Positions 2,604-17,881 are shown, counted from the first letter of the stretch. The stretch is DNA of 64,000 nucleotides from an uncultured Bacteroidales bacterium (GCA_964386225.1 CAYLTG010000001.1:935-64934), one strand, 5' to 3'. The notes: generated by a model from the letters alone, not told the origin. Program-made: numbers and translations.

Positions 2604-4043
2604 TCAATGTTTGTATAGTTTATGGATCGATTCGCCCTGTTCGTACCGGATGAACAGGAAGTAGATGCCCGGGGCCATGCCGTCCAGTCTGATAACCGGG
2701 GATCCCGGATTGAAAAGATGGATCGCTTTACTTTTTAGGACGGTGCCATTGGCTGCGGTCAGGCGGCAAGCGACCGGGATCCTGTCTGTTGTCAGGTAGA
2801 CCTCGTCCGTAACAGGATTGGGATAGACTGTGGTCCTGACCTCCCCGCTGATATGTTGGTCGATGCCCACCTGGGTTCCAAGAAAATTTGTTTTGATCAC
2901 ATAGATGTCTGTCCCTCCCGCCGTATTGTTTTCCGTCATCCCGGCGATGATGAACCCCCCGTCGGCCGTTGCTTTCACCGAATAGCCCTCATCGCCGTAA
3001 ATGCCGCCATAGGTCTGTGTCCAGAGTGTGTCTCCGCTGGGGTCGGTACGGATGAGCCATACATCCTCGTTGCCGGCCCCGTAGCTTTCCGTCTCGCCGC
3101 AAAGGATGTAGCCCCCGTCGTTGGTCACGTCCACGGAGGCGCCGCGCTCATCTTCACCTTCCAGCCCGTAGGTCCTGGTCCATTCCACGTTGCCTGATCC
3201 GTCCGTCTTGACCAGGTAGAAGTCCGCATTCATGAGGACGATGCCCTGGAAATAATTGCCCAGCATGATGAACCCTCCGTCAGGGGTCTCTTTGATGTCC
3301 CAGGCCGATTCGGTGGACTGGTCGCCGCCGATGGTCTTGTTCCACTTTGAGGAACCTGTCTCGGAGACCTTGAATAGCCAGGCATCCGTGAATTCGTCGG
3401 GGGTGTCGAACATGCCTCCTACCACTAATCCGCCATCTTCTGCCCGGACCATGCTCGTTCCGTAATGTACCCCGATGTTGCCTTTCGAGATGTTCCAGAG
3501 GACCTCGCCGGCCAGGTTCACGCTCATGACAAATACATTCTGTCCCCAGAGCTCCGCTCCCCCTTTGCTGTATTGATAGGTGCCGCAGACGGCAAAAGTA
3601 GTATCGCCTGATTGCAAGGCGTGCCAGGCATACCCGTCCGGGTAGGGGTCATTGTATTCCTGCTGCCAGATCTTCGTCCCGGCGGGATCATACCTGGACA
3701 GGAAGGGTACGAACCCGGTGGTGCCGTCGGCGATCCCTGCCACAATGAAACCGCCGTCGCTGACGGGTGTGATGCAATGGGCCTGTTCGATCCCATAGGT
3801 CTCCCCCTCCTGGCGGGTCCAGAGGGTGTCCCCATTCTGATCGAGCTTCATCAGGAAAACATCCTCATACCCCGAGTAGAACTCGGTCGTATATCCCGCG
3901 ATGAGGTAGCTTCCATCATCGCAGATGCTGACATGGTAGGCCATGTCGTCATCGATGCCGCCGTAGGTCCTTTCGAAGACCTGGGCATAACTGGCGGTGA
4001 AGAGCAAGAGGGCCGATGCAAGGGCAGGTGCCTTTTTTTTCAT
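2604..4043 (-). CDS. Secreted seven-repeat (beta-propeller-like) protein with T9SS C-terminal sorting domain
   Basis: 479 aa with signal peptide MKKKAPALASALLLFTASYAQ. About seven ~50-aa repeats carry DGG[FY]I[IVL]xG ... D[VAI][WF]L[IFM]K ... G..[LKE]W. The CTD reads VYPNPVTDEVYL...GIYFLFIRY. Confidence 0.8.
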   Translation of the reverse strand: MKKKAPALASALLLFTASYAQVFERTYGGIDDDMAYHVSICDDGSYLIAGYTTEFYSGYEDVFLMKLDQNGDTLWTRQEGETYGIEQAHCITPVSDGGFIVAGIADGTTGFVPFLSRYDPAGTKIWQQEYNDPYPDGYAWHALQSGDTTFAVCGTYQYSKGGAELWGQNVFVMSVNLAGEVLWNISKGNIGVHYGTSMVRAEDGGLVVGGMFDTPDEFTDAWLFKVSETGSSKWNKTIGGDQSTESAWDIKETPDGGFIMLGNYFQGIVLMNADFYLVKTDGSGNVEWTRTYGLEGEDERGASVDVTNDGGYILCGETESYGAGNEDVWLIRTDPSGDTLWTQTYGGIYGDEGYSVKATADGGFIIAGMTENNTAGGTDIYVIKTNFLGTQVGIDQHISGEVRTTVYPNPVTDEVYLTTDRIPVACRLTAANGTVLKSKAIHLFNPGSPVIRLDGMAPGIYFLFIRYEQGESIHKLYKH

Positions 4044-4404
4044 TACCAGTGATTTAGGGTGTTTGAGAAAATGTCAATCAACTGTTCAGGTTTTATTTGA
4101 AGTCTTCAATTTGTCCTTATGCTCCGGTATGTGAAACGGGATGAGGTCTAGCAGGAGAGTTATTTCGAGTGCTTACCCGAAGCCATAGAACATTGTAAAT
4201 GTAAAGAAATTAGCCCATCAAACCAAAAATTACTCTGCCGGTCGTAAGCCTGGGTTGCATTTTGCAGTTTCAGAAAGCAGGGCTTTTGTCTCCTTCATCC
4301 CTCAAAAATTCCCGTTCACCACATTTTTCTTTCCTGCATCATTCTTTCCTGCTTGCTTTGGGCAGAATTTCAGAAATGGATTTTCAACGCATATCAGGAT
4401 TCAC

Positions 4405-5430
4405 ATGCAAAAAATAATTCAATTTTTCACTGTCACATTGATCGGGACGACCTTTCTTATAAGCTCCTGCAAGCACTCCCCCGAAGACAACATCAACCCC
4501 GACGATCCCAATAACCCGCCGCCGGTCGACACCATCGCCTGCGATTCCACCAACGTCACCTACCCCGGTACGGTTTTCCCCATCCTGCAGGCCAGCTGCC
4601 TCTCCTGCCATGGCGGCGCCACTCCGGCAGGGGGACTCGATTTCAACAATTATGACGACGTGGCCTTCGTGGCCCAGACCGGTCAGCTGGTGGGATCCAT
4701 CAACCACCTTGCAGGGTTCAAGCCCATGCCGCAGAACGGGCCTAAGCTTTCCGGGTGCGAGATCGCACTGATCACGAAATGGGTGAACGATACTACCTTC
4801 AACGGCGGGGGTGGTGGCAACAACGGCAACTGCGACCCCGATACGGTTTATTTTCATAATGATATTCTGCCACTTCTCCTTTCGAGCTGCGGCACCACAG
4901 GCTGCCACGATGAAGGTACGGCCCAGGAGGGCATCATCCTCACCAGCTACTTCCACGTGATGCAGTCGGGGGTGGTGAAGGCCTTCGATCCCAACGACAG
5001 CGAAATGTACGAGAAGATCACGGAGGACGACCCCGAAGACCGCATGCCGCCGCCGCCGCGGACACCCCTCAACGCCGACCAGATCAACATGATCTACACC
5101 TGGATCGCACAGGGGGCGCTGGACAACTCATGCGACGCCGGCGACTGCGACACGGTCAACGTCACCTTCTCGGGGACCATCTTCCCGATGATCCAGAACC
5201 GCTGCTACGGATGTCACAGCGGCCCGGAGCCCCAGAGCGGCATCAGCCTGGAGAATTATGCGTCCGTCAGCGCGGCCGCAGCCATCGCCCCGGGCAATCC
5301 CGGCAGCCTCCTGGGCGCCGTGACCGGGGCACAGGGCAACTCTCCGATGCCCAAGAACGGACCGCCGCTGCCCGACTGCAACATCGAGCAGATCAAGAAA
5401 TGGATCGCCGACGGGATGCCTGACAATTGA
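4405..5430 (+). CDS. Lipoprotein with three PSCyt1-like putative c-heme modules
   Basis: I moved the start from the ORF-track TTG 4255 to ATG 4405, which gives MQKIIQFFTVTLIGTTFLISSC (signal plus lipobox). There are three paralogous ~95-aa modules. Motifs: CLSCH at 4597-4611, CGTTGCH at 4888-4908, CYGCH at 5203-5217. The pattern P-I-L...CxxCHG...MP.NGP.L..C...I.KWI resembles the Planctomycete cytochrome C (PSCyt1) domain. Confidence 0.7.
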   Translation: MQKIIQFFTVTLIGTTFLISSCKHSPEDNINPDDPNNPPPVDTIACDSTNVTYPGTVFPILQASCLSCHGGATPAGGLDFNNYDDVAFVAQTGQLVGSINHLAGFKPMPQNGPKLSGCEIALITKWVNDTTFNGGGGGNNGNCDPDTVYFHNDILPLLLSSCGTTGCHDEGTAQEGIILTSYFHVMQSGVVKAFDPNDSEMYEKITEDDPEDRMPPPPRTPLNADQINMIYTWIAQGALDNSCDAGDCDTVNVTFSGTIFPMIQNRCYGCHSGPEPQSGISLENYASVSAAAAIAPGNPGSLLGAVTGAQGNSPMPKNGPPLPDCNIEQIKKWIADGMPDN

Positions 5431-5544
5431 CAATGAGTGAATGCGTAAATGAGTGAATAAGTGGTGAATTTTTACGGACTTTTTAAACAATCGCTTTGAA
5501 TGGGTGTTGACAGCACTGGCAAGTATAATCAAGAATATCAGATC

Positions 5545-5919
5545 ATGATCAGAAAAACAATCAATGCGGCATTGATGGTCCTGGCCCTGGCCGGCCTGCA
5601 GGCGTGCTACTGGGACAACGAGGAAGAGCTTTACCCCGTGGTGGGCGATTGCGACACCACCAACGTCACCTACTCCGGCACGGTGGCGGTGATCCTTGAC
5701 GCCAGCTGCGTTTCCTGCCACAACAGCACCTTCGCGCAGGCCGGGGTGGTGGTGGACAACTACGACGACCTCAAGGTGGTGGTCGACAACGGCCGTTTCT
5801 GGGGGGCCATCAACCATGAGGACGGATATTCACCCATGCCTCAGAACCTCCCCAAACTGCCGGAGTGCGACCTGAAGAAGATAAGGACCTGGATCGATAA
5901 CGGCGCCATGAATGACTGA
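5545..5919 (+). CDS. Lipoprotein with one PSCyt1-like putative c-heme module
   Basis: Start at ATG 5545 (MIRKTINAALMVLALAGLQAC, lipobox). It carries a single module paralogous to those of the upstream gene, with CVSCH at 5707-5721 and ...MPQNLPKLPECDLKKIRTWIDNGA. Confidence 0.7.
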   Translation: MIRKTINAALMVLALAGLQACYWDNEEELYPVVGDCDTTNVTYSGTVAVILDASCVSCHNSTFAQAGVVVDNYDDLKVVVDNGRFWGAINHEDGYSPMPQNLPKLPECDLKKIRTWIDNGAMND

Positions 5920-6029
5920 TACAAATGCTTACCCCGGATCTACTCATATGAAAATTTCCGGCCCCCTGGGCCCAATTACGGGCGACTGAACGAAGTTCAG
6001 GCGACCAAATGACCTAAAAACACATACCT

Positions 6030-6947
6030 ATGAAGCAACTGATTATCCTGCTCACCGCCCTTGCATTCAGCGCGTTGCCTATCCTCGCCCAGGACGACCT
6101 GATGGACCTGCTGAACAGCGAAGAGCAGGCCGTTGATTACACCTATGCCACCTTCAAGACCTCGAGGATCATCAACTCACACTCGGTGGAGCAGCCCGCA
6201 TCAGGCGTCCTGATGTTCCTCATCCAGCACCGGTTCGGGCGGCTGAACACCGGATTCTATGAACTATTCGGGCTCGACCAGGCAACCATCCGGCTGGGCC
6301 TGGAATACGGCGTCACCGACCGGCTTAGCATCGGCGTGGGTCGCAGTTCCTACCAGAAGACCTATGACGGGTTCGTCAAGTACAAGTTGTTGCGGCAGAG
6401 TACGGGTGCCCGGAAAATGCCCGTGACACTCTCGTACTACGGCAGCATGACGCTCAATTCGCTGAAATGGGAAGACCTGGGTGTGGAAGATCGCGACAAC
6501 AATTTCAGCTCCCGCCTGGCCTATACCCACAAGTTGCTGCTGGCGCGCAAGTTCAGCAGCAGCATTTCCCTGCAGCTGATGCCGACCTACACCCACAAGA
6601 ACCTTGTTCCCACGGCCGACGATGCCAACGACATCTTCTCCATGGGCGTCGGCGGAAGGGTGAAGATCACGAACCGGATGTCGGTGAATGCGGAATATTA
6701 CTACACCCCGGAAAGCCAGATCTCCTATGAGTTCACGCAGCCCTTCTCCCTTGGCCTCGACCTGGAAACGGGGGGGCATGTCTTCCAGCTCCACTTCTCC
6801 AATGCCCAGGCCTTCTTCGACAGCGGCTACCTGACCGAGACCTCCGGAAAGTGGGGCGATGGCGACGTCTATTTCGGGTTCAACATCTCACGGGTCTTCA
6901 CGATCAAGAAACCGAAGGTGCCGGAAGGGGAATCCACGGGATATTGA
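6030..6947 (+). CDS. Small outer-membrane beta-barrel protein (family not assigned)
   Basis: 305 aa with signal peptide MKQLIILLTALAFSALPILAQ. The sequence has an alternating amphipathic strand pattern rich in Y/G/S/T. It is the last gene of the CxxCH lipoprotein operon and is followed by a terminator. Confidence 0.65.
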   Translation: MKQLIILLTALAFSALPILAQDDLMDLLNSEEQAVDYTYATFKTSRIINSHSVEQPASGVLMFLIQHRFGRLNTGFYELFGLDQATIRLGLEYGVTDRLSIGVGRSSYQKTYDGFVKYKLLRQSTGARKMPVTLSYYGSMTLNSLKWEDLGVEDRDNNFSSRLAYTHKLLLARKFSSSISLQLMPTYTHKNLVPTADDANDIFSMGVGGRVKITNRMSVNAEYYYTPESQISYEFTQPFSLGLDLETGGHVFQLHFSNAQAFFDSGYLTETSGKWGDGDVYFGFNISRVFTIKKPKVPEGESTGY

Positions 6948-7011
6948 TCCCCCGATGTCAGATTGATCGTCCGCATTTGACGAAATTATCTTTTCTTTGC
7001 AGCAAGAACAA

Positions 7012-7043
7012 GGGGCCCGGCCATGCCGCAGGCCCTTTTTTTT
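7012..7043 (+). terminator. Rho-independent terminator after the CxxCH/beta-barrel operon
   Basis: GGGGCCCGGCCATGCCGCAGGCCC hairpin (GGGCC/GGCCC arms) followed by T8. Confidence 0.6.
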
Positions 7044-7045
7044 GA

Positions 7046-7759
7046 ATGTTATCAACTATCCATATGGAATTGTTCAAGGCAAACGACAAGCTGTTCGACC
7101 TGGTTGATGCCAACCACAACCTGCTGCCCGTGCTGAACCGGTTCGGCATTCGTCCGGGGTTCAAGGACAGGACGGTGGCGGAGGTATGCGCCGAAAAGGA
7201 GATCAACAAGGACTTCTTCCTGGCGCTGGTGAATACTTACAACAACCCTGATTATTTCCCGGAGGAAGAGCTGCTTGGGTTTTCCCCGCTGCTGATCATC
7301 GATTACCTCCGCAAAACGCATGAGTATTACATTGGTTATTTCCTGCCCCGCCTGGAATGGCTGCTCGACAGGATGTCGGGCGATGACGGGGGCGACAACC
7401 GCGACTTGAGAACGATCCGGTCTTTCTATGAGAAATACAGGCAGGAGCTCCTGGCCCATATCCGTGATGAGGAGGAGAATGTATTCCCGGCTGTCGTGGA
7501 CTTCATCCGGAACAGCGCGGACCGGAAACTGGGCAATGCGGCCATTTCCTTTGAAAAGGAACATACCAACGTGGAAATGAAGCTGAGCGACCTCAAGCAC
7601 CTCATCGTCAAATATGTCAGGCCGGGATACGACGACCATGATTTTTATGAGTTCGTGTCGGCCCTCTACCGTTTTGAAAAGGACATCATCGACCATGCCC
7701 GCATCGAGGACAAGATCCTCGTGCCCCGGATCAAAGGGATCACACCCGCTGCCAGATGA
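7046..7759 (+). CDS. Hemerythrin-like domain protein (RIC/ScdA-like architecture)
   Basis: 237 aa. The N-terminal ~60-aa helical domain resembles ScdA_N/DUF1858. The C-terminal part has spaced H/E residues (HEYYIGYF, AHIRDEEENVF, EKEHTNVE, IDHARIEDKIL) as in hemerythrin-like cation-binding four-helix bundles. An alternative start is ATG 7064 (MELFK...). Confidence 0.65.
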   Translation: MLSTIHMELFKANDKLFDLVDANHNLLPVLNRFGIRPGFKDRTVAEVCAEKEINKDFFLALVNTYNNPDYFPEEELLGFSPLLIIDYLRKTHEYYIGYFLPRLEWLLDRMSGDDGGDNRDLRTIRSFYEKYRQELLAHIRDEEENVFPAVVDFIRNSADRKLGNAAISFEKEHTNVEMKLSDLKHLIVKYVRPGYDDHDFYEFVSALYRFEKDIIDHARIEDKILVPRIKGITPAAR

Positions 7760-8352
7760 AAAGGGAGATCTTCATCATACACCCGTCACCCATTGTCAGG
7801 AAAGGGTTGAACGCCGCCCTGCGTGGCTTTTTCAGCCACGACATCACGATGCTGCCGGATGCTTCTGAAATGAAGGCCTACAGGGAGATCAGGAATTCCA
7901 TCGTGATCGTGTTCATCGGTCCTGACCAGGACCGGGGGCACCTCACCCGCCTCCAGGCGAGTAACCGGCTTCACCTGGTGCAGATCACCGGATCGGCCGG
8001 AGAAGGGGAGGTGAACGGCGACAAGGACCCTTTCCTCAGCATCCACGCCCAGGATCATCAGATCCGTGAACTGCTCCACGGGCTTCTGGAAAGGGACTCC
8101 GCCGCTGTTGCCGACCGGCCGCAGGACGACGAACTGACGGTCCGGGAAAAGGAGGTGCTAGCCCTGGTAGCCATGGGCCACTCCAGCAAGGAGATCGCCG
8201 ACAAGCTGTTCATCAGCGTCCATACCGTGATCTCCCACAGGAAGAACATCACCGAGAAGCTGGGCATCAAGTCCATCTCCGGCCTTACCGTGTATGCCAT
8301 CCTCAACCGCGTCATCGACCCCGATACCCTGAATGCCGACCTGCTGATCTGA
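7756..8352 (+). CDS. LuxR/GerE-family transcriptional regulator with degenerate receiver-like N-terminus
   Basis: The C-terminal HTH is LTVREKEVLALVAMGHSSKEIADKLFISVHTVISHRKNITEKLGI. The start overlaps the upstream stop as ATGA (7756-7759). The N-terminal beta1 reads IFIIHPSP rather than an acidic DD pair. Confidence 0.8.
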   Translation: MKREIFIIHPSPIVRKGLNAALRGFFSHDITMLPDASEMKAYREIRNSIVIVFIGPDQDRGHLTRLQASNRLHLVQITGSAGEGEVNGDKDPFLSIHAQDHQIRELLHGLLERDSAAVADRPQDDELTVREKEVLALVAMGHSSKEIADKLFISVHTVISHRKNITEKLGIKSISGLTVYAILNRVIDPDTLNADLLI

Positions 8353-8435
8353 AAAATCCCAACAATTGGGGATTTCCATTCTGAATTAGTCCGGGTAGTT
8401 TTGCTTTGTTAAATGATGAACAAATCAAAACGATC

Positions 8436-9641
8436 ATGAGAACCGCAGCAACAATGGCCATGATCCTGCTGATATCTTTCGCGGGACAGGCACAGAATAC
8501 CGACAGCAGCAATAATGTATACAGGAACACCGCCGACCGGATGATGGTCAACGACAGCCGGCTCACCCTGGGTGGATACGGGGAGGTGCACTACAACCAA
8601 CCGGTGGGGGGTGCGACGCGCAGCCTGGGGACATTGGACGTCCACCGCGTGGTCCTGCTTTTCGGCTATAAATTCAATGCACGCACCCAATTTGTTACCG
8701 AGATCGAGTTCGAACATGTCAGTGAAGTGTATATTGAGCAGGCCTTCCTGCAGTACAAGATCACCAACGGGATCAGTTTCAGGGGCGGGTTGCTGCTGAT
8801 CCCCATGGGCATCATCAACGAATACCATGAGCCCACCACCTTTCAGGGCGTGGAACGGCCCCTGGTGGACAAGGTCATCGCACCCACCACCTGGCGCGAG
8901 ATCGGGCTGGGATTCAACGGCAACATCTTCCCCGCCTATCTGAAGTACCAGGTCTACCTTGTGAACGGGTTTGCGGGATACGACGGCGAGGCCAACCTGA
9001 ACGGCAGGAACGGACTGCGGGGAGGTCGCCAGAAAGGGGCCGAATCTTTTATCAGCGCGCCCAATCTCACGGGTAAGTTGGAATTCTACGGGGTCCGCGG
9101 CCTGAACGTCGGACTTTCGGGGTACTTCGGGAATACCCAGAGCAACATGTACAAGGGGATCGAAGTGAACGATGCCGAAGGAAAGACCAGGGCCGATTCT
9201 TCCGTGGTGGGCGTTTCCATGGTCGGGATCGATGCCAGGTATTCGATGAAAGGTTTCGAATTGAGGGGGCAGTACTATCACGTCGGCCTGTCGAACACCG
9301 GTCCCTACAACCAATTCACAGCCTCGGAAGAAGGCCCCAACGACCTGGGCAGCCGGATGTCGGGATATTACCTGGAGGCAGGCTACAACGTGTTCAGGCT
9401 GCTCCGTGGCGTGGGCACTGAATTGGTCCCCTTCGTCCGGATTGAGCAATACGATACACATGCCGCAGTGGAGGAGGGCACCACCCGGAATGACGGATAC
9501 AACAACACGATCATCACCACCGGCCTCAGCTGGCGGATGGCGCCGGGGGCTGTCCTCAAGGCTGACATGCAGTTCGTGAAACCCCGGTCGGCCGGCAATT
9601 ACAGCCAGGTATTCAGCGCAGGCCTCGGTTTCATGTTTTGA
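8436..9641 (+). CDS. Outer-membrane porin-like beta-barrel
   Basis: Start at ATG 8436 (MRTAATMAMILLISFAGQAQ signal); the ORF-track start is TTG 8406. It has an amphipathic strand pattern, and the C-terminus GLGFMF ends in an aromatic residue, typical of OM barrels. Confidence 0.7.
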   Translation: MRTAATMAMILLISFAGQAQNTDSSNNVYRNTADRMMVNDSRLTLGGYGEVHYNQPVGGATRSLGTLDVHRVVLLFGYKFNARTQFVTEIEFEHVSEVYIEQAFLQYKITNGISFRGGLLLIPMGIINEYHEPTTFQGVERPLVDKVIAPTTWREIGLGFNGNIFPAYLKYQVYLVNGFAGYDGEANLNGRNGLRGGRQKGAESFISAPNLTGKLEFYGVRGLNVGLSGYFGNTQSNMYKGIEVNDAEGKTRADSSVVGVSMVGIDARYSMKGFELRGQYYHVGLSNTGPYNQFTASEEGPNDLGSRMSGYYLEAGYNVFRLLRGVGTELVPFVRIEQYDTHAAVEEGTTRNDGYNNTIITTGLSWRMAPGAVLKADMQFVKPRSAGNYSQVFSAGLGFMF

Positions 9642-9653
9642 TACGCTAAAGCT

Positions 9654-10265
9654 ATGAACAGGATTGTTTCACTTCTTTTGGTATTGGCCTGGTCGACCTC
9701 GGTACCCGGCCAGCCCGGAATCGACTATGGCCACAAACGCTTGTTCAAGGCCATCGAGCGGGAATGGGGACTCACGGATCCAGCCTTGGAAGAGCAGGCG
9801 GTAGCCGATACTATTCCCCTGGCCGAACCGGTCCAGGGGAAGTTTTTCCGGATCCAGGAAAATGAATACGTAAGCAATGACCATTATATTTTCGTGGGGA
9901 GGGTGAACAGCTGCCGTGCCGGTGGCTGTTCCGTTTCCCTCGACGAGGAATTGTATGGGAATTCGGAGTATTTCGATTATTTCATCCTCTTCGGCCCGGG
10001 CCCCGCGGTGCAGGATGTTCAGGTCTTCAACTACCAGGCATCCTATGGCCAGGAGGTGTCGGCACGCGGTTGGCTGAGGCAATTCCAGGGGTACGACGGT
10101 AAATCCTACCTCCAGGTCGGAAAGGACATCGATGCCATCTCCGGGGCCACCATTTCGGTGTATGCCATTACCCAGGATGTCATCCAGAAAACAAGGCTCC
10201 TCTGCGAAATGACGTGCCCCGGGTGTGCAAAAAAAATCGCCGCTTCCAGCGGAAACGGCGACTGA
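9654..10265 (+). CDS. Secreted FMN-binding-domain protein
   Basis: Signal peptide MNRIVSLLLVLAWSTSVPGQP. The motif DAISGATIS (10131-10157) matches the FMN_bind [ST]GA[TS] flavinylation motif of NqrC/RnfG-type domains. It starts 12 nt after the porin gene. Confidence 0.7.
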   Translation: MNRIVSLLLVLAWSTSVPGQPGIDYGHKRLFKAIEREWGLTDPALEEQAVADTIPLAEPVQGKFFRIQENEYVSNDHYIFVGRVNSCRAGGCSVSLDEELYGNSEYFDYFILFGPGPAVQDVQVFNYQASYGQEVSARGWLRQFQGYDGKSYLQVGKDIDAISGATISVYAITQDVIQKTRLLCEMTCPGCAKKIAASSGNGD

Positions 10266-10280
10266 TATCCGGGGTTCAGC

Positions 10281-10484
10281 TTACTTTTTTTTCGTGGTGC
10301 TCAATCCGAAGGGCAGATAAAGCGGGCAGAAGCTGACCAGGCTTGTGAGCAGGAATACGATGGCCAGGATCAGGAGGATGAGTCCCAGCGTTCCTGTGAT
10401 CACGTTCGTGAAATAGAGGACTGCGATGACCACAGCCAGGATGATGCGTACGATCCGGTCAGTGGATCCCATGTTTGCTTTCAT
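10281..10484 (-). CDS. DUF2892 (YgaP-like transmembrane domain) small membrane protein
   Basis: 67 aa. GSTDRIVRIILAVVI...two TM helices...FCPLY matches the characteristic DUF2892 pattern. Confidence 0.8.
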   Translation of the reverse strand: MKANMGSTDRIVRIILAVVIAVLYFTNVITGTLGLILLILAIVFLLTSLVSFCPLYLPFGLSTTKKK

Positions 10485-10546
10485 AATGAGGTATGATTTA
10501 GTTAATGAATAATTTTGACTCGTGATTTTCTACCCGAAGATAGCAA

Positions 10547-11104
10547 TTATTTCTTGAACTCTTCCAGCGCGACTTCAACAGTCACTTCGATCTCTTCGGC
10601 GATGTTATTGACCACCGTTTTGGGGATCTTGATGTCATGATCGGCGGGTTTGACAATAAATTTGCAATTGCCTTTCACCGCCCCGTCGGTCACGGTGAAA
10701 GTGCCGGACTCCTTGACCTCCCGGTCCACACCATGGATCGTCAGGATCCCTTCCACGATGGCCCGGTATTCTCCGGAAGTTCCGAAATCGATCTGGTCGA
10801 GGTTCGTCACTTTGCCTTTGAAGGTTGCATTGGGGAACTTCTCCGACTCCACGTAGTTCTCGTTGAAATGCTCCTGCATGAGGGCTTTTTCGAACTCGAA
10901 CGAACGCATGAGGACCTTGAAGACGAAATCGCCGGATTCCGAATCCAGGGCGCTGTTCACCTGGCGATTATGAGCTTCGATGGTCTCGATGGGGGTTTCG
11001 GAGTAGAACTTGATATACCCGTTCTTTGTGATGTACTTCTGCGAGAAGCCGGCCAAAAAGAACAGGAGCAGGGCTGCGGTTAGCATTGTTTGTTTCATTT
11101 CCAT
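10547..11104 (-). CDS. YceI-family (polyisoprenoid-binding lipocalin-like) periplasmic protein
   Basis: 185 aa with a signal peptide. The YceI-like core is ...IKFYSETPIETIEA...EHFNENYVESEKFPNATFKG...LTIHGV.... It is a paralog of the gene at 17213-17785. Confidence 0.85.
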   Translation of the reverse strand: MEMKQTMLTAALLLFFLAGFSQKYITKNGYIKFYSETPIETIEAHNRQVNSALDSESGDFVFKVLMRSFEFEKALMQEHFNENYVESEKFPNATFKGKVTNLDQIDFGTSGEYRAIVEGILTIHGVDREVKESGTFTVTDGAVKGNCKFIVKPADHDIKIPKTVVNNIAEEIEVTVEVALEEFKK

Positions 11105-11123
11105 CAGTTTTTTTGGTTAAGGG

Positions 11124-11154
11124 CCGGGAAGGCGGAGATCCCCCGCCTTCCCGG
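11124..11154 (-). other. Perfect 12-bp GC-rich hairpin between the T9SS gene and yceI-like gene
   Basis: CCGGGAAGGCGG (11124-11135) and CCGCCTTCCCGG (11143-11154) flank a 7-nt loop. No U-tract follows on the transcribed strand, so it may be an intra-operon RNA structure or weak terminator. Confidence 0.4.
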
Positions 11155-11159
11155 GTTGC

Positions 11160-12953
11160 CTATAATTTAATGATCGTTTTCGAAATTACCAGCCCGTTGT
11201 CGAGTTTCAGTGAGAGGTAATAGATCCCTGGTATGGCGTCACTCATGTCCACGCTGGCATTTTGCGTTCCGCCCCGCACAGTGAAATTACTGACCATCCT
11301 GCCGGTTGAAGAGTAAAGGCTGGCCTCGGTCACGCGCAGGTCATCCAGTTCGGCCCGCAGGGTGAATTTGTCGGTCACCGGGTTGGGGTACACATGCACC
11401 TGGCTTGCCAGGATGTTCTCCCGGATGCCGGTCAGTGGCCACTGGATGTCCGTGAAATTGGTGTTATGGGTGAAATCCAGCTCGCTGTCGCCGGCCACGC
11501 CGTTCAGTTCAAGCCTCCAGGCATGGTCAGCGGGGGGCGGGTCGTACACGCCGTTGCCGTTATGATCGGCATAGAAGTCCACGAAGTAATCCTCACCCAG
11601 TTCCAGCCCGATGGCAAGGGCGTCATAATCAACGAGCACGATGCTGTCGAGCCGCATCCTGCCGGCCTCCTGCATGGTAGCCTGGTTCACCAGCCGCAGT
11701 TCGAAGAGCTGGCCAAGGTGCGGGGTCATCCCCATGGCATGGAGCGTGAACCGGTACTCCCAGCCGATGTCGGTGAAGTTGGTATTGTGAATGAACTCGT
11801 CGTCCTCATCGCCCTCCACATCGGTGAGCTCCAGCCTCCAGGCATGGTCGGCAGGGGGCGCATCGTACACGCCGTTGCCGTTATGATCGGCCCAGAAATC
11901 CACATAATAGGTTTCCCCGGTGCTGATGAATGGCATATGCACGTCGAACTCCGCCGAGGGGATCGCGTCCACCTTTGCGCGGCCGGCTTCTTTCATGGTG
12001 GCCATGTCCACGAGGCGCACCTCTAATTTTTGCCCGATGTGCGGGGTCATGCCGCTGAACTCCAGCGTGTACATGTGCTTGAAGTTGATCTCCGAGAAGT
12101 TGAGGTTATGCTGGAAATCCACGGCGGAAAATCCCATGAAGTCGTTCACGGTGAGCCTCCAGGCATGGTCGGTGGGGATGCCGTCGTACCATCCGTTGTC
12201 ATTGTGGTCGGCGTAGAAATCGATCCAGTAGCTCTTTCCGTCCTCGGTGTTGGAAAAGGAAATGTCGAAGTCGGGGCCCGGCACCTCATCCAAAGCGAGG
12301 CGTTCCACCTCCGTGAGGTTTTCCTTGTCGATGAGCCTGGCTTCCATCAGCTGGCCCACGTGCGGGGTCATGCCGGTCAGGTTGACGGTGATCCCGGTCT
12401 GTACGCCGGAGGATTCGGCCACCGGAAGGGTGGAGGTGTAGATGACGTCCCCCTGGTTGTTGCCGTTCCCGTTGGCGGCGTTGAAGGCGGCATAGAAGGT
12501 GACCTCGCCGGTGCCTGCTGCGGGGGCGGTCCAGTCGAACGACCAGGATTTGGAATCGCCCGTGGGGGTGGTGCCTGCGTTCTTGTGCGTGATGGCGTTG
12601 TTGCTGTTGATCAGCATGGTCTCGGTCGCATTGGTGACCACCAGGGTGCCGACCTTGCTGGCGCCCGCATCCTCCGAGGTCAGTTCGAACCCGAATTTCC
12701 CGACTCCGGGATGCGTACCCGTGGCGGTGATGGTATAGGTCTGACCCGGCTCATAGCCGTCGGCAGGGATGTCGGAGGTGATCCAGCCCGCCTGCGCCGT
12801 GGCTGTTCCGCTATGACACTGGGTGCAGGTGGTGCCGCCGTCGCCGGGGCTGCCGGTCTTGCCGCCCGGTGAGCCGGAGGAATACATCAATTCGGAGGTC
12901 AGCAGGAAAAACAGGCCCGCCACAGTAAAGAGAAGGTAAATTGCTTTTTTCAT
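11160..12953 (-). CDS. T9SS-sorted surface protein: N-terminal CxxCH domain plus three ~105-aa repeats
   Basis: 597 aa with a signal peptide. GGTTCTQCHSG carries the CxxCH at 12813-12827. Three repeats follow, each with GMTPH[VIL]GQ ... ADHN[GD]NG[VW]YD..P[AT]DHAWRL. The T9SS CTD is VYPNPVTDKFTL...GIYYLSLKL...IKL. Confidence 0.8.
   Translation of the reverse strand: MKKAIYLLFTVAGLFFLLTSELMYSSGSPGGKTGSPGDGGTTCTQCHSGTATAQAGWITSDIPADGYEPGQTYTITATGTHPGVGKFGFELTSEDAGASKVGTLVVTNATETMLINSNNAITHKNAGTTPTGDSKSWSFDWTAPAAGTGEVTFYAAFNAANGNGNNQGDVIYTSTLPVAESSGVQTGITVNLTGMTPHVGQLMEARLIDKENLTEVERLALDEVPGPDFDISFSNTEDGKSYWIDFYADHNDNGWYDGIPTDHAWRLTVNDFMGFSAVDFQHNLNFSEINFKHMYTLEFSGMTPHIGQKLEVRLVDMATMKEAGRAKVDAIPSAEFDVHMPFISTGETYYVDFWADHNGNGVYDAPPADHAWRLELTDVEGDEDDEFIHNTNFTDIGWEYRFTLHAMGMTPHLGQLFELRLVNQATMQEAGRMRLDSIVLVDYDALAIGLELGEDYFVDFYADHNGNGVYDPPPADHAWRLELNGVAGDSELDFTHNTNFTDIQWPLTGIRENILASQVHVYPNPVTDKFTLRAELDDLRVTEASLYSSTGRMVSNFTVRGGTQNASVDMSDAIPGIYYLSLKLDNGLVISKTIIKL
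11433..12392 (-). repeat. Three tandem intragenic coding repeats (~315 nt each)
   Basis: Protein repeats span roughly aa 188-294, 295-400 and 401-507. Repeats 2 and 3 share an identical 29-nt stretch, TCGTACACGCCGTTGCCGTTATGATCGGC (11863-11891 and 11542-11570). Confidence 0.8.
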
Positions 12954-12972
12954 ATCAGTAGAATTTTAGTTG

Positions 12973-13410
12973 TTATTCATTGACGATCGAACATTTCTCC
13001 AGGATCACATCCGTACCATTGAACCCTGTGCAATAACCCTTGAGGGTGGCGCTCGCATCCTTTAAAAGGGCGCTGGCCGCCCGGCTGTGGTTGTCGAGCA
13101 TGGTCAGCCGGATCCCTTCGTCCCCGAACATCCCTTCGCTCAACGCAAAGACCACGATGGTGAGGGAGTCGGGCGTTTCCACGGCTGTTACCCGGCCGGT
13201 CACCTGGAGCACTTTCCCGTTGTAGGTGTTTTCTGCCTCCTTCCGGTTGCCGGTGTAGTGGGAGAACAGCTCCTCGGCCGTGATGCGGTACTCCGCCTCC
13301 GCCTTTTCATAGTCGGTGTGTGGCTTGTTGTACACGAAAACATATCCCAGAATGCCTGCTGCGATCCCGAGGAATACCAGTACTGCGATGATCTTGATCC
13401 ACTTGTTCAT
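12973..13410 (-). CDS. Membrane-anchored OB-fold protein (tRNA_anti-like family pattern)
   Basis: MNKWIKIIAVLVFLGIAAGILGYVFVYNKP is an N-terminal TM anchor. It is followed by ...AEELFSHYTGNRKEAENTYNGKVLQVTGRV.... An alternative upstream ATG lies at 13431. Confidence 0.7.
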   Translation of the reverse strand: MNKWIKIIAVLVFLGIAAGILGYVFVYNKPHTDYEKAEAEYRITAEELFSHYTGNRKEAENTYNGKVLQVTGRVTAVETPDSLTIVVFALSEGMFGDEGIRLTMLDNHSRAASALLKDASATLKGYCTGFNGTDVILEKCSIVNE

Positions 13411-13473
13411 GGCATGGTCGATTTGTTCCATGCAAAGGAACGTGAATGCGACAGGGTGCGGAAATAAAACTCC

Positions 13474-13506
13474 GTGAACGGGAATTATGGAATGGTGAAC
13501 GGGAAT
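13474..13506 (-). promoter_or_regulatory. Candidate LytTR operator: ATTCCCGTTCAC x2, 21-bp period
   Basis: Exact 12-mer copies lie at 13495-13506 and 13474-13485 (read on the minus strand) with a 9-bp spacer. They sit between the LytTR regulator gene and the downstream gene. I confirmed the sequence against the ORF-track translation ...YSRSPFHNSRSR.... Confidence 0.55.
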
Positions 13507-13524: not shown

Positions 13525-14283
13525 TCAGCCGGCCTGTCCGTCAAGCCATTTCTTGAAGCTTCCCGAGCGCTCTGTGCTGGCTACGGTCTCGAAATCGCAG
13601 GGCGGATCCAGCTCGACCTTCACCCGCGATTTGGACCAGGCGTACATCTCCCTGATCGCGCGGATGTTGATGATGATCTGCCTGTTGATGCGGTAGTAAC
13701 GCTCCGGGTCAAGCATGCCCTCCAGACGGTCGAGGCTGTGGTCCGATGGGTATTCCATGCCGTCGAAGGTCTTGAAGAAATTGTTTCCCTCCAGGGTATA
13801 GAAATAGGCGATCTCATCCGTCGGTACCACCTTGATCTTCTGTCCGTAGCGCACCATGAACCGCTTCTGGTAGCTGCGGGGCGTCAGGACCCCCGCCAGG
13901 GCCCCGTAATCGGGCTTCCTGTCCTGCTGCGAGATCCTTTTCAGTTTATCCAGGCTGGCCTTCAACTGGTCGCGCGACACCGGCTTCAGCAGGTAGTCGA
14001 TGCTGTTCACCCGGAAGGCATCGATGGCGTACTGGTCGTATGCCGTGGTGAAGATCACGGGGATATCCATGTGGACGGCCCTGTATATCTCGAAGCAGCT
14101 GCCATCGGCCAGGTGGATGTCCTGGAAGATCAGGTCGGGGTGGGGGTGGGAGGTCAGCCAGGCGATGCTGGATTCGACGCTGTCAAGGATCTCCACCACC
14201 TCGATGCCGGGATCCAGTTCGCCGATCAGTTTTTGCAGCCGCTGGGCCGTGGCGTGTTCGTCTTCGATGATGAGCGCTTTCAT
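13525..14283 (-). CDS. LytTR-family two-component response regulator
   Basis: The receiver is MKALIIEDE...DLIFQDIHLADG.... The C-terminal LytTR DNA-binding domain is ...IKVVPTDEIAYFYTLEGNNFF...YYRINRQIIINI.... I prefer ATG 14283 over the ORF-track TTG 14292. Confidence 0.9.
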   Translation of the reverse strand: MKALIIEDEHATAQRLQKLIGELDPGIEVVEILDSVESSIAWLTSHPHPDLIFQDIHLADGSCFEIYRAVHMDIPVIFTTAYDQYAIDAFRVNSIDYLLKPVSRDQLKASLDKLKRISQQDRKPDYGALAGVLTPRSYQKRFMVRYGQKIKVVPTDEIAYFYTLEGNNFFKTFDGMEYPSDHSLDRLEGMLDPERYYRINRQIIINIRAIREMYAWSKSRVKVELDPPCDFETVASTERSGSFKKWLDGQAG

Positions 14284-14288
14284 GAAAT

Positions 14289-17216
14289 TCAAGGGATAAA
14301 AGGAAGTCCGACGGTGAAGGCATGTTCCGTTTTGATGACCATAACTTCTTCATCGGTGAGCAGTTTGTACCTGCTGATGATGTTGTTGATGCCGATCCCG
14401 GTGGAAGGTGTATCCTGCAATTTTTCCTGGATGTTGTTCTCCACAAAAATACGATTTTCGCCGGGTTTTGAAAAGATTTTGATCCTTAAGGGTTTGCCCC
14501 TGGATGCCACATTGTGCTTGATCGCATTCTCGATGAGCAGCTGCAAGGTGAGGGGCGGGATCTTCGTCCCCCTGAAGGCGGAGGGTTCCTCCATTTCAAC
14601 CACCAGGTTGCTGCCATACCTCTTTTTCTGCAGGTTGATGTAGTTGCCGGCGATCTCGTACTCACGGTCCAGGCTCACCAGGTCCTGGTCCTTGTATTCC
14701 AGGATGATCCTGAAGAGCATGGAAAGTTCTTCCACGTAGTTGACAGCAGCCTTTGTGTCATCTTCGATGAGTGCGATGAGGGTGCTGAAGCTGTTGAACA
14801 GGAAGTGGGGGTTGATCTGGCTCTTCAGGTTCTCGAACTGGAACCTGATCTTTTCCTGGATCAATTCCTCCTTTCGCCTAACCTGCCGGATCCTGGCCGT
14901 AAGGATCATGGCGGTCAGCCCGCCTGCCGCCAGCACCAGCAGGATGTAAAACCAGATCGAGGAATGGAATGGCTTGCGGATGGTGAAGGTGTACGCTTCT
15001 TCCCCGGCAGCGCTGAAATTTCCGTAAAGGCCCGACCTGACGCGGAAAGTGTATTCACCCGGCCGCAGGTCAGAATAGATCACCTGGTTGTTGCGTGTCC
15101 GTATCCAGCCCAGGTCATGTCCGTCAAGCTTCACCTGGTATTCCACCTGGTCGGGTTGCTGGTACCAGAAACCCGAATAGTTGAACGAGAGGTGGTTCTC
15201 GTTGTGGTTAAACTGCTTGCTGCCCGAATGGTTGAACGGCTCCAGGAACAGGGCGACCCCTTCCAGTTTGGTCCGCGGCTGTTCCCACAACCCTTTTTCC
15301 AGGGGCCGGATCCGGATAATGCCTTTGGCCGTCCCTATCCATAGTGCATGGTGCGAATCGCGGGCGAGGGTGTTGAGGTCGGGGTTGATGAAGGCGATCC
15401 CCGCATTTTCCTCGAAATGCCGGATGGCCCCGGTGGATATGTTCATCACATCGATGCCGTTCTCGTGGGCCATCACCAGTTCGCCCTTGCTGCTGAGTAT
15501 CCCGCTGATGGTCACTTCCCGCCGTCCGGCCTCGCGGGAAATCCGGGAATAGCTTGTGCCGTCGTATTTATGGAGTCCTTCTCCGGCTATGTTGAGCCAG
15601 GTGTTGCCGGCGTCATCGCGAGCGACCGAATATACCACCTTGTCGGCCATTTCACCCCCCGGGTCCAGGTGGAGGAATTCCCCGTCCCGGTAAAGATGCA
15701 CGCCGCTGCCGTCGGTCGCGAAATAGGGTGTTCCGTCGTCCGGGAGGAATACCTGGTAGATGTAATTGTTCACGAGCCCTTCCTCCGATCCGAAATTCTG
15801 AAAAGTTGGCACGTGGTCCGGTTCTTCCATGTTTTTATCCATGATGCACCGTGATGCGCCGCCCAGTGTGCCGAACCAGATCTCCTGCCTGTTCCCGGTA
15901 ATGGAGAGCACATTGCCGTTCACCAGCCCGTCGCGCTCGGTGATGACTACCTGCCGGCCGGTCCCGGGGTCCATCCTGACCAGCCCGCTGCCGAAGGTCC
16001 CCACCCAGATGAAGCCGAGGTAGTCGCGGTAGATGCTCATCACCTTCTGCTGGTCCAGGTCGATGATCAGCGGGTGATGTACCGCGGCTGCCCCGGGCTG
16101 CCCCGGGTCATAGGAGTAGATGCCCCGGTCATCGGCGAACCACAGCTGGTCGTCGCTGTCGACGGTGAGGGCATGGATGTTGTTCAGCTCCATCCCGCCG
16201 ATCGACTGGAAGAACTCGATCCTGTTCCCGAACGAAAGATACAATTCGTTGCCGGAGAGCAGCCAGATGTTGCCCTCCTGGTCCCTAAGCATGGACTTGA
16301 TCCTTCCCATGGTTTGTTCCCCGACATCCCGGTAATGGGTCACGGTGCCGGTTTCGGGGCTGTATTCCATGATGCCCCTGTCCGATGTGGCGATCCAAAT
16401 CCTGTCCTCCAGGATCACCATGTCGCGCACCGCACCGAACTGCCATTCCCGCAGGTTTTCCGGCACGTGGAAGGTGCCGCTGCGTTGGTCATACCTGCAG
16501 ATGCCCCGGTCATACATCCCGATCCAGATGCTGCCGCTGTCACCGGCGGCGAGGCATTGCACGATAAAATCGGGCAGGCCCTCGTCGATGCTCAGCTTCG
16601 TAACTTTCCATGCGCCACCCTCGGATCCCGCCACATTGATCCCGTTGTCGGTGCCCATCCAGATCCTGTTGCCGGGACCCGTGACGATGGAGTAGATGTA
16701 ATTGTCGGAAAGGCCTGACTCGCTGTTCATCTGGACGATGGCCGTATCCCGGCTGACGAATGCGCCGCTGCCGTAGGTGGCCATCCACACGGTCCCCGGC
16801 TCTCCCTCGACGAAGCCCGTGATCCGGCTGACATTCTCCCTGCCGGCTGACAGCACGGTGTCGAAAACCTCGAATCCGTCATACGTCAGGACGCCGCCAT
16901 TTTCAAAACCGATCCAGAGGTTGCCGGAATGGTCGGTGAACAGGGCGGTTGGTCCCTCGTCCCTGAAGTTGCCGGGGAGCACCACCGGTGTGAAGGATAG
17001 TCCGTCGAAGGTGTACAACCCTGCGGCCGTCCCCAGCCAGATCATGCCGTCGTGATCCTGGTGTATGCAGTTCAGGTTGCCCTCCCCGACTTTCGTGTCG
17101 ATGGGGACAGTCCGGAACCAGGCCTGGGCCCGCGCGTCAGGTGCCGCCAGCAGCACCGGAAGGATCAGGGTCGCAACCGCGGCAATCAGGGTCAACAGGA
17201 AGGGGCGCCCGGTCAT
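14289..17216 (-). CDS. Sensor histidine kinase with periplasmic two-component-regulator propeller/Y_Y_Y domain and LytS/YehU-type kinase core
   Basis: 975 aa with a signal or TM segment. Many propeller repeats are present (G.IW[IL]GT..G[LI]). The Y_Y_Y-like segment is YQVKLDGHDLGWIRT...PGEYTFRVRS and the TM segment is IWFYILLVLAAGGLTAMILTA. The His_kinase box is QINPHFLFNSFSTLIALI, followed by a HATPase region. Confidence 0.9.
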   Translation of the reverse strand: MTGRPFLLTLIAAVATLILPVLLAAPDARAQAWFRTVPIDTKVGEGNLNCIHQDHDGMIWLGTAAGLYTFDGLSFTPVVLPGNFRDEGPTALFTDHSGNLWIGFENGGVLTYDGFEVFDTVLSAGRENVSRITGFVEGEPGTVWMATYGSGAFVSRDTAIVQMNSESGLSDNYIYSIVTGPGNRIWMGTDNGINVAGSEGGAWKVTKLSIDEGLPDFIVQCLAAGDSGSIWIGMYDRGICRYDQRSGTFHVPENLREWQFGAVRDMVILEDRIWIATSDRGIMEYSPETGTVTHYRDVGEQTMGRIKSMLRDQEGNIWLLSGNELYLSFGNRIEFFQSIGGMELNNIHALTVDSDDQLWFADDRGIYSYDPGQPGAAAVHHPLIIDLDQQKVMSIYRDYLGFIWVGTFGSGLVRMDPGTGRQVVITERDGLVNGNVLSITGNRQEIWFGTLGGASRCIMDKNMEEPDHVPTFQNFGSEEGLVNNYIYQVFLPDDGTPYFATDGSGVHLYRDGEFLHLDPGGEMADKVVYSVARDDAGNTWLNIAGEGLHKYDGTSYSRISREAGRREVTISGILSSKGELVMAHENGIDVMNISTGAIRHFEENAGIAFINPDLNTLARDSHHALWIGTAKGIIRIRPLEKGLWEQPRTKLEGVALFLEPFNHSGSKQFNHNENHLSFNYSGFWYQQPDQVEYQVKLDGHDLGWIRTRNNQVIYSDLRPGEYTFRVRSGLYGNFSAAGEEAYTFTIRKPFHSSIWFYILLVLAAGGLTAMILTARIRQVRRKEELIQEKIRFQFENLKSQINPHFLFNSFSTLIALIEDDTKAAVNYVEELSMLFRIILEYKDQDLVSLDREYEIAGNYINLQKKRYGSNLVVEMEEPSAFRGTKIPPLTLQLLIENAIKHNVASRGKPLRIKIFSKPGENRIFVENNIQEKLQDTPSTGIGINNIISRYKLLTDEEVMVIKTEHAFTVGLPFIP

Positions 17217-17785
17217 GGGGTGGATGGTGTTTTGGTCAGTGTCACTTCAATGCTCACGGCCACCTCTTCGGCGATCTTCTGGTAGACGAGCTTCGGAATG
17301 GTGATGTTGTGGTCGTCGAGGCTGACCATGAACCTGCTGGTGGCCGTGAACTGGTCCGGCCCGATGTCGAGCATGCATTTGATGATCCTTTCTTTTTTGA
17401 CACCGTGGATGTCAAGGATGCCCTTGGCCCGGACCTCGAGCCGACCCGGGACGCTGAGGTCGACCTTTTCGATGATCCTCCCGCTGAAAGAGGCGTTGGG
17501 ATATTTCTCCACCTCGATGTAGTTCTCGTAAAAATGTTCCTGCTGCAAGGGTGAATTGAAACCGGTAAGGGTTTGCGTCCCCACCTGGAAGGCAAAGGTG
17601 CCCTTGGAGGGATCGAACAGGCCCCTGAGGGCATCCGACTCTGCTGCGATGAGTTCCAGCGGGGCGTCGGAAACGAAGGAAACATGCCCGTTCTCGGCCC
17701 TGTATAGTACGGCGGACCCCTCATCCTGTCCCAACAGGCCGAGGGCAAGGCAAAGGAACGACAAGCTGATGATCATCCTGTTCAC
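17213..17785 (-). CDS. YceI-family periplasmic protein, translationally coupled to the sensor kinase
   Basis: 190 aa with a GTG start and a signal peptide. The YceI-like core is EHFYENYIEVEKYPNASFSG...ILDIHGV. Its stop overlaps the kinase ATG as ATGA (17213-17216). Confidence 0.85.
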   Translation of the reverse strand: MNRMIISLSFLCLALGLLGQDEGSAVLYRAENGHVSFVSDAPLELIAAESDALRGLFDPSKGTFAFQVGTQTLTGFNSPLQQEHFYENYIEVEKYPNASFSGRIIEKVDLSVPGRLEVRAKGILDIHGVKKERIIKCMLDIGPDQFTATSRFMVSLDDHNITIPKLVYQKIAEEVAVSIEVTLTKTPSTP

Positions 17786-17823: not shown

Positions 17824-17831
17824 TAGTTTTG
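17824..17831 (+). promoter_or_regulatory. Bacteroidota-type -7 box TAGTTTTG upstream of the phoD-like gene
   Basis: It matches TAnnTTTG and lies ~50 nt upstream of ATG 17882. This supports the shorter start for the phosphatase gene. Confidence 0.4.
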
Positions 17832-17881
17832 TGAGATACCGCAGCCTTTTGAAAAGATCAGGGCATGCAAACATCACATCT

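Follow-up and report, generated by a model that had tools for sequence, protein, structure and literature searches.

A candidate LytTR operator at two promoters nine kilobases apart in an uncultured Bacteroidales bacterium

To our knowledge, transcriptional regulation in Bacteroidota is poorly mapped outside polysaccharide utilisation. In a 64,000-nucleotide stretch of DNA from an uncultured Bacteroidales bacterium, here called the window, a 12-mer just upstream of an operon headed by a c-type cytochrome lipoprotein gene recurs twice, 9 kb away, beside the gene for a LytTR response regulator, raising the question of whether this regulator also controls the cytochrome operon. Motif statistics, promoter geometry and comparison with related loci make it very probable that positions 4287-4319 are a functional operator of the neighbouring regulator; we infer its binding, activation rather than repression, the transcription starts and the signal from sequence.

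Paired repeats and predicted -7 boxes at the two promoters

The 12-mer, ATTCCCGTTCAC, is present as three exact copies in 64 kb, at 4308-4319 (+), 13474-13485 (-) and 13495-13506 (-), against 0.03 expected; none of 100 shuffles contained three or more, in line with the view of the initial annotation that three copies are unlikely by chance. Each copy is in sense orientation to the gene downstream of it. The two minus-strand copies form a perfect direct repeat with a 21-bp period in the promoter of an OB-fold gene, 13495-13506 being the distal and 13474-13485 the proximal repeat. The copy at 4308-4319 is the proximal repeat of the cytochrome-operon promoter (predicted -57 to -46) and ends 86 nt before the ATG at 4405; of the two copies at 13.4 kb, the distal one shares 14 nt of context with it and the proximal one 13 nt, and the likeness stops there. 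Its partner, which starts exactly 21 bp upstream (4287-4298, +; predicted -78 to -67), is a decayed repeat, TGTCTCCTTCAT, matching at 7 of 12 positions. The position, orientation, shared context and degenerate partner of the 4308 copy are all as the initial annotation had described them.

We scored these sites with a weight matrix built from 15 repeat pairs (30 sites) outside the window, using only orthologous sites of other genomes. Its consensus is wTTCCcGTTCAG, with T2, C5 and T9 invariant in the 30 sites and the GTT near-invariant (G in 26/30, T in 24/30, T in 30/30). With this matrix ATTCCCGTTCAC reaches 16.3 bits, a score with a per-position p of 1.1e-6 and an expectation of 0.14 sites per window; its three copies tie for the best single-site score in the window. 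As a pair, 13474-13506 ranks first in the window at 32.6 bits, the maximum of 200 shuffles being 23.5, and 4287-4319 ranks second at 14.8 bits, inside the shuffle range (11.5 +/- 2.8). The decayed half-site scores -1.5 bits (p = 0.017, that is, 1.7% of random 12-mers are as good at this fixed offset) and departs from two of the invariant positions, T2 and C5.

These scores leave room for a reading in which the 4308 copy matches by chance, leaving the double site at 13.4 kb as the one functional element. The best single site in shuffled 64-kb windows averages 14.6 +/- 1.5 bits with a maximum of 19.0, putting 16.3 bits about 1 sd above the average; the distal partner at 4287-4298 is very weak, and an equal-scoring match is found inside a gene, at 19718, where promoter features are lacking. 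A lone 16.3-bit match being barely above the shuffle best, the case for 4308 rests on position and context, geometry and conservation, not on score alone. Position already weighs against chance: a sense-oriented site scoring 16.3 bits or more would fall in the 150 nt before the cytochrome gene at 4405 with a probability of about 1.7e-4.

Geometry weighs in the same direction. The -7 box of Bacteroidota sigma-A promoters, TAnnTTTG, spans -12 to -5 and is accompanied by a -33 element, TTTG/TTG (PMC9723704). Both window promoters read repeat, 9 nt, repeat, 33 nt and then TnnnTTTG, with the TTTG at +37 from the proximal repeat. The predicted -7 boxes, TTGCTTTG (4353-4360, +) and TTCCTTTG (13433-13440, -), retain T1 and TTTG of the consensus without A2, and place the predicted transcription starts near 4365 and near 13428, respectively. 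Counted from these predicted starts, the repeats would span roughly -78 to -46, upstream of the -33 element; the -33 position reads TTTC in both promoters, which is weak compared with TTTG/TTG and is consistent with dependence on an activator. TTTG falls at +36 to +38 for only 2 of the 71 window sites of at least 8 bits, namely 4308 and 13474, and a TTTG at the conserved offset has a chance of about 1% per site. A sigma-70 promoter scan, whose model does not cover Bacteroidota promoters, returned 4 matches against 5.4 expected.

The first ATG of the OB-gene reading frame (13429-13431, -) lies 2 nt past the predicted -7 box, so the gene probably starts instead at the ATG at 13410 (13408-13410); this start (MNKWIKII...) agrees with the N-termini of the homologues.

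Other near matches in the window lack this arrangement. The one at 19718-19729 (+), TTTCCCGTTCAC, has the same 16.3-bit score as the exact copies, but is antisense within the coding region of an amidohydrolase (19652-21007), has neither a partner repeat nor a -7 box at the conserved distance, and is probably a chance occurrence. We set it aside together with the near matches at 10345, 15912, 42030, 46520 and 53959, all of which lie within open reading frames and lack the promoter geometry. A further match, at 4131-4142, faces two genes for T9SS sorting-domain proteins divergent from the cytochrome gene (2604-4043 and 480-2597, both -), and had led the initial annotation to suggest that this T9SS cargo pair might belong to the regulon. 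Its reverse complement does read ATCCCGTTTCAC, as described, but with a score of 9.1 bits, for which a window should contain about 24 sites, it is within chance. Neither a partner repeat at +/-21 bp nor a TTTG at the conserved offset accompanies it, and no T9SS cargo homologue was found near the two-component system in any fetched locus. We rejected this match as evidence for regulon membership, and the suggestion made for the T9SS pair is not supported.

Linkage of the two operons and their repeat pairs in related loci

The cytochrome operon (4405-10265, +) opens with the c-type cytochrome lipoprotein (4405-5430; PSCyt1 1e-18, Cytochrome_CBB3 2.5e-10, Pfam), which has a lipobox, LISSC, and two CxxCH motifs, at residues 65 and 267. 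It is followed by a small c-type cytochrome (5500-5919; weak PSCyt1 match, one CxxCH at residue 70) and a DUF5777 membrane beta-barrel (6030-6947; PF19089 1.5e-97), and then, according to Pfam and NCBIfam, by a hemerythrin/RIC-like protein (7046-7759), a LuxR/GerE regulator (7756-8352), an exported protein with no assigned family (8406-9641) and an FMN_bind protein (9654-10265). The same databases identify the products of the second operon (10281-13410, -), which lies directly downstream of the regulator gene, as an OB-fold 'tRNA_anti-like' membrane protein (12973-13410), a Reeler/choice-of-anchor-V T9SS protein with one CxxCH (11160-12953), a YceI protein (10547-11104) and a YgaP-like TM protein (10281-10484). 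A hairpin scan placed a terminator-like hairpin of 13 pairs with a T run (10235-10263, -) between these convergent operons.

We searched 80 loci encoding relatives of the LytTR regulator with all window proteins, and examined metagenome contigs besides. The closest genome relatives of the regulator are 66-67% identical to it; the best relatives and the T9SS sorting domains assign the organism to Bacteroidota. In about 30 loci orthologues of the kinase and regulator (regulator identity 45-67%) lie directly beside orthologues of genes from both window operons, no more than 10 kb away. The linked set consists of a cytochrome c (cytc341), a small cytochrome c (cyt139), DUF5777, YceI and the OB-fold protein, usually in one co-directional cluster in the order (OB)-cytochrome c-small cytochrome c-(OB)-YceI-DUF5777, a cluster that either follows the regulator or precedes the kinase. 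The loci belong to Chitinophagaceae, Saprospiraceae, Lewinella, Pontibacter, Taibaiella, Flavipsychrobacter and a Flavobacteriales MAG, and a metagenome contig (L087) has the same arrangement; in loci with only more distant paralogues of the regulator (35-45% identity) the cluster was absent. Given a single fused cluster beside the regulator in about 30 loci, the two window operons can be understood as two halves of one regulator-linked gene set, which supports the proposed regulon independently. In the window, as in L002 and the metagenomic contig L089, the cluster is divided between two convergent operons; L002 and L089 each also have the hemerythrin, LuxR, unknown and FMN_bind genes. This extension of the operon (7046-10265) is lineage-specific, its gene order being repeated in L002, L089 and the contig of P0042, the closest relative of the cytochrome (94% identity). 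An exact look-up of the window cytochrome protein itself gave no recorded match. The P0042 gene starts at contig base 12, and in two further loci (L088 and L090) the DNA before the gene is too short for promoter comparison.

In the relatives, direct-repeat pairs with a 21-bp period directly precede the cluster or stand in the gap separating the regulator and OB genes; examples are TTTCCCGTTCGG/TTTCCCATTCAC in L001, ATCCCTGTTCAC/ATTCCCACTCAC in L002, TTGCCGGTTCAG/ATTCCCGTTCAG in L008 and TTTCCCGCTCAG/GTTCCCGTTCAG in L020. Relatives with the split arrangement have a pair of their own before the cytochrome gene, in a position homologous to 4287-4319: ATACCGGTTCAA-9-ATTCCCGTTCAG in L002, ATTCCTGTTCAG-9-TTTCCCATTAAT in L081, ATCCCCATTCAT-9-TTCCCCATTCAC in L089 and CCTCCCGTTCAC-9-TTCCCTGTTCAC in L091. 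The decayed half-site at 4287-4298 aligns with the good distal repeats of L091, L089 and L002, with C14, T18, T19 and C20 invariant in the alignment. The closer relatives keep two good repeats where one has decayed in the window. The motif is present at both promoters in the window and in L002, and at the cytochrome promoter in L089, the DNA of which covers that promoter only; each half of the gene set thus retains its own copy of the predicted operator after the operon split.

The distance to the -7 box is conserved along with the repeats. TTTG lies at +37 in eight promoters of relatives (L001, both promoters of L002, L007, L010, L020, L089 and L091) and one base further, at +38, in L016, L027 and L081, and several other relatives have TTTA or TTTT at the -7 box position. 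In an essentially ungapped alignment of eight promoters, conservation is confined to the two repeats and the TTTG, and the flanks between them are not conserved, a pattern that reads as a classic phylogenetic footprint.

Taken together, these comparisons make a chance match at 4308 highly improbable, as the site not only stands in an improbable position with TTTG at exactly the conserved offset but has pairs at the same place in the orthologous promoters of L002, L081, L089 and L091, before a member of the gene set that accompanies this regulator across the phylum.

The refuting condition named in the initial annotation was that the 12-mer might belong to a dispersed, REP- or MITE-like repeat with no regulatory role. 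We scanned whole loci of up to 20 kb on both strands with a crude matrix derived from the window 12-mer alone, and in 13 loci the highest-scoring pair with a 21-bp period coincided with the cluster promoter or came just past the regulator gene, zones of about 300 nt in which a pair would land by chance in less than 1% of cases per locus. In 1.37 Mb of related DNA we found 33 strong pairs, all of them on the sense strand, promoter-proximal and beside the two-component system or the cluster genes, which argues that the motif is not a dispersed repeat. The likeness among the window copies ending after 13-14 nt, the presence of only three exact copies in 64 kb and the lack of conservation in the flanks between repeats and -7 box point the same way, and we regard the chance that the 12-mer is such an element as negligible. 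Linkage, repeat pairs, -7 box geometry and the sense-strand placement of the pairs instead support the earlier proposal that the cytochrome/beta-barrel operon would belong to the same LytTR regulon as 10281-13410.

The predicted LytTR reader and its known counterparts

The putative reader is encoded by a receiver-LytTR response regulator gene (13525-14292, -; LytTR 1.2e-15, Response_reg 2.9e-13, Pfam), the only LytTR gene in the window. Its likely start is the ATG at 14283, homologue alignments beginning at residue 4. Beside it lies the gene for a sensor kinase (14289-17216, -), in which Pfam recognises periplasmic Reg_prop propellers, a Y_Y_Y domain and a LytS-type His_kinase domain.

Known LytTR sites follow the consensus [TA][AC][CA]GTTN[AG][TG], with a spacer of 12-13 bp, upstream of -35 (PMC5600425). 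The core of the window motif, CCCGTTCA[C/G], agrees with this consensus at 7 of 9 positions in the form CCCGTTCAC and at 8 of 9 in the phylum-wide form CCCGTTCAG. Direct repeats at 21 bp are present as a perfect pair at 13474-13506 and as a perfect and a decayed repeat at 4287-4319, and a regulator with a LytTR domain is encoded nearby, adjacent to a LytS-type kinase. On this likeness, the element is very probably a canonical LytTR operator.

The AgrA sites at agr P2/P3 of Staphylococcus aureus resemble those of the window in being two imperfect direct repeats with a 9-bp GTT core and a 12-13 bp spacer, in lying just upstream of -35 (a position that for the window is predicted from the spacing to the -7 box), in being read by a phosphorylated receiver-LytTR regulator whose gene is next to that of a kinase (as is predicted for the window regulator), and in having half-sites of unequal quality that may tune promoter strength (PMC5600425). 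The two systems differ in core (CCCGTTCA[C/G] in the window, ACAGTTAAG-like for AgrA), in promoter, which in the window is predicted to be of the Bacteroidota type with -33/-7 boxes, in kinase, a periplasmic double-propeller sensor as opposed to the peptide-sensing AgrC, and in targets, which are envelope cytochromes, YceI and a barrel in the window and quorum-sensing/virulence genes for AgrA. The AlgR core of Pseudomonas aeruginosa, CCGTTCGTC, has the same first six bases, CCGTTC, as the window core (PMC4064291), and in both cases a LytTR response regulator of a Gram-negative bacterium is paired with a kinase of the LytS/AlgZ type. AlgR sites, however, are often unpaired, far upstream or even intragenic, whereas the 21-bp period and the 33 nt to the -7 box are strictly conserved in the window system. 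The ComE, PlnC/PlnD and VirR boxes of Gram-positive LytTR regulons are also direct repeats about 12 bp apart in which exact spacing is critical (PMC4064291), but they belong to another phylum and differ in signal, sigma-factor promoter type and regulon content.

The operator could be real and yet be read by another protein, either a different LytTR paralogue, many of which are usually carried by Bacteroidota genomes, or the LuxR/GerE protein (7756-8352), which is encoded within the target operon itself. We consider this unlikely. The motif pair adjoins the orthologues of this regulator specifically, no second LytTR paralogue is encoded in the window, and head-to-tail repeats with a 12-bp spacer are a LytTR signature, LuxR/NarL-type proteins usually using inverted repeats. 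The LuxR gene, moreover, is found in only 1 of the 80 genome loci (L002), together with metagenome contig L089 and the P0042 contig, and the motif is present elsewhere; conservation of the motif in genomes that lack this gene led us to reject the LuxR/GerE protein as its binder.

If the window regulator is the reader, it could still act as a repressor, or bind 4308 as a single site in a mode unlike that of the paired promoter. Single or unpaired AlgR sites can function, and do so at various positions (PMC4064291), and the distal half-site of the window has decayed. The predicted placement of the repeats upstream of a weak -33 element at a strict distance from the -7 box is nevertheless the activator-dependent LytTR layout of AgrA P2/P3, and the closer relatives have retained two good repeats, which makes repression or single-site binding quite improbable. 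With one perfect and one decayed half-site, the cytochrome promoter would, under paired binding and activation, probably need more phosphorylated regulator than the OB promoter; it is probably the weaker, later-responding of the two, as with the unequal AgrA sites.

Proposed regulon and associated genes

We propose that the sensor kinase would detect a periplasmic signal through its propeller domain and phosphorylate the LytTR response regulator, which would bind the direct repeats as a head-to-tail dimer, the 21-bp period corresponding to a 9-bp core plus a 12-bp spacer. From about -78 to -46, just upstream of the weak -33 element (TTTC), the regulator would activate a sigma-A promoter whose -7 box is fixed 33 nt downstream. 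The promoter at 13474-13506, immediately past the regulator gene, would drive the OB/Reeler/YceI/YgaP-like operon, and that at 4287-4319, 9 kb away, the cytochrome c/DUF5777/hemerythrin/LuxR/FMN_bind operon.

The products of the gene set all have signal peptides or membrane anchors and several are predicted to bind haem, suggesting, as a speculation, a regulated extracytoplasmic module for redox or for haem/lipid handling. More broadly, and with slightly more doubt than confidence, we suggest a phylum-wide module in which a LytTR regulator and its LytS-type kinase, a double-propeller protein associated with YceI, would act through two copies of wTTCCcGTTCAG with a 21-bp period, at a rigid 33 nt from the -7 box, to control a conserved exported set of cytochrome lipoproteins, YceI, OB-fold and DUF5777 proteins (here joined by Reeler/T9SS, hemerythrin and FMN_bind proteins), constituting an extracytoplasmic redox or haem/lipid-handling system.

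A full-text literature search returned nothing relevant on DUF5777, on PF12869 or on LytTR together with YceI, Flavobacterium or Bacteroidetes, and we found no LytTR operator or regulon from Bacteroidota in the literature searched, in which the regulon and its phylum-wide conservation appear to be undescribed. If correct, this may be the first LytTR operator defined from Bacteroidota, providing a concrete, testable motif with defined geometry and a clear case of a regulon that would have stayed intact after an operon split, with an operator in each half. It would also tie DUF5777, the PF12869 OB-fold, YceI and PSCyt1-type cytochromes together in function, pointing to an envelope redox module under regulation. 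Since the binding of direct repeats by a LytTR dimer is textbook, the value lies in annotation and hypothesis generation and not in a new principle.

Several genes around the two promoters have features of their own. The single CxxCH of the Reeler/T9SS protein (11160-12953) is at residue 43, and the protein may be a surface haem protein within the putative regulon. Neither a receiver nor a ligand domain can be recognised in the N-terminal 120 residues of the LuxR/GerE protein (7756-8352); its gene is translationally coupled to the hemerythrin/RIC-like gene, a pair seen only in the lineage of the window (L002, L089 and the P0042 contig). The kinase/regulator operon is opened by a second YceI-like gene (17213-17785, -; YceI 3.8e-10, Pfam), which overlaps the start of the kinase gene by 4 nt to give the order YceI-like/kinase/regulator, an order also present in the Saprospiraceae loci L003, L004, L013 and L031; its product might carry a ligand to the propeller kinase or act with it as a co-sensor. 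We looked for autoregulation and found no motif of at least 8 bits upstream of this operon. Next to it, a PhoD-like phosphatase reading frame (17831-19216, +) probably starts at an ATG near 17883 (MKAIRFVF...) and not at the GTG at 17831, so that it and the YceI-like/kinase operon would share about 95 bp of intergenic DNA.

In many Chitinophagaceae and Saprospiraceae loci in which the cluster lies upstream of the kinase, a second strong pair is found just past the regulator stop (L008 10786-10818, L009 7672-7704, L010 10800-10832, L013 6606-6638 and L050 10776-10808, and also in L017, L022, L026 and L031). The second pair of L008 precedes a gene for a 135-aa lipoprotein without a Pfam match, which may be a further regulon member. 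Two loci have three repeats in a continuous 21-bp register (L005 11574-11627 and L022 11555-11608). At position 12 of the motif, the repeat ends in CAC in the window, L001, L002, L089 and L091 and in CAG in most distant relatives, an operator drift particular to this lineage, for which corresponding changes in the LytTR domain could be sought.
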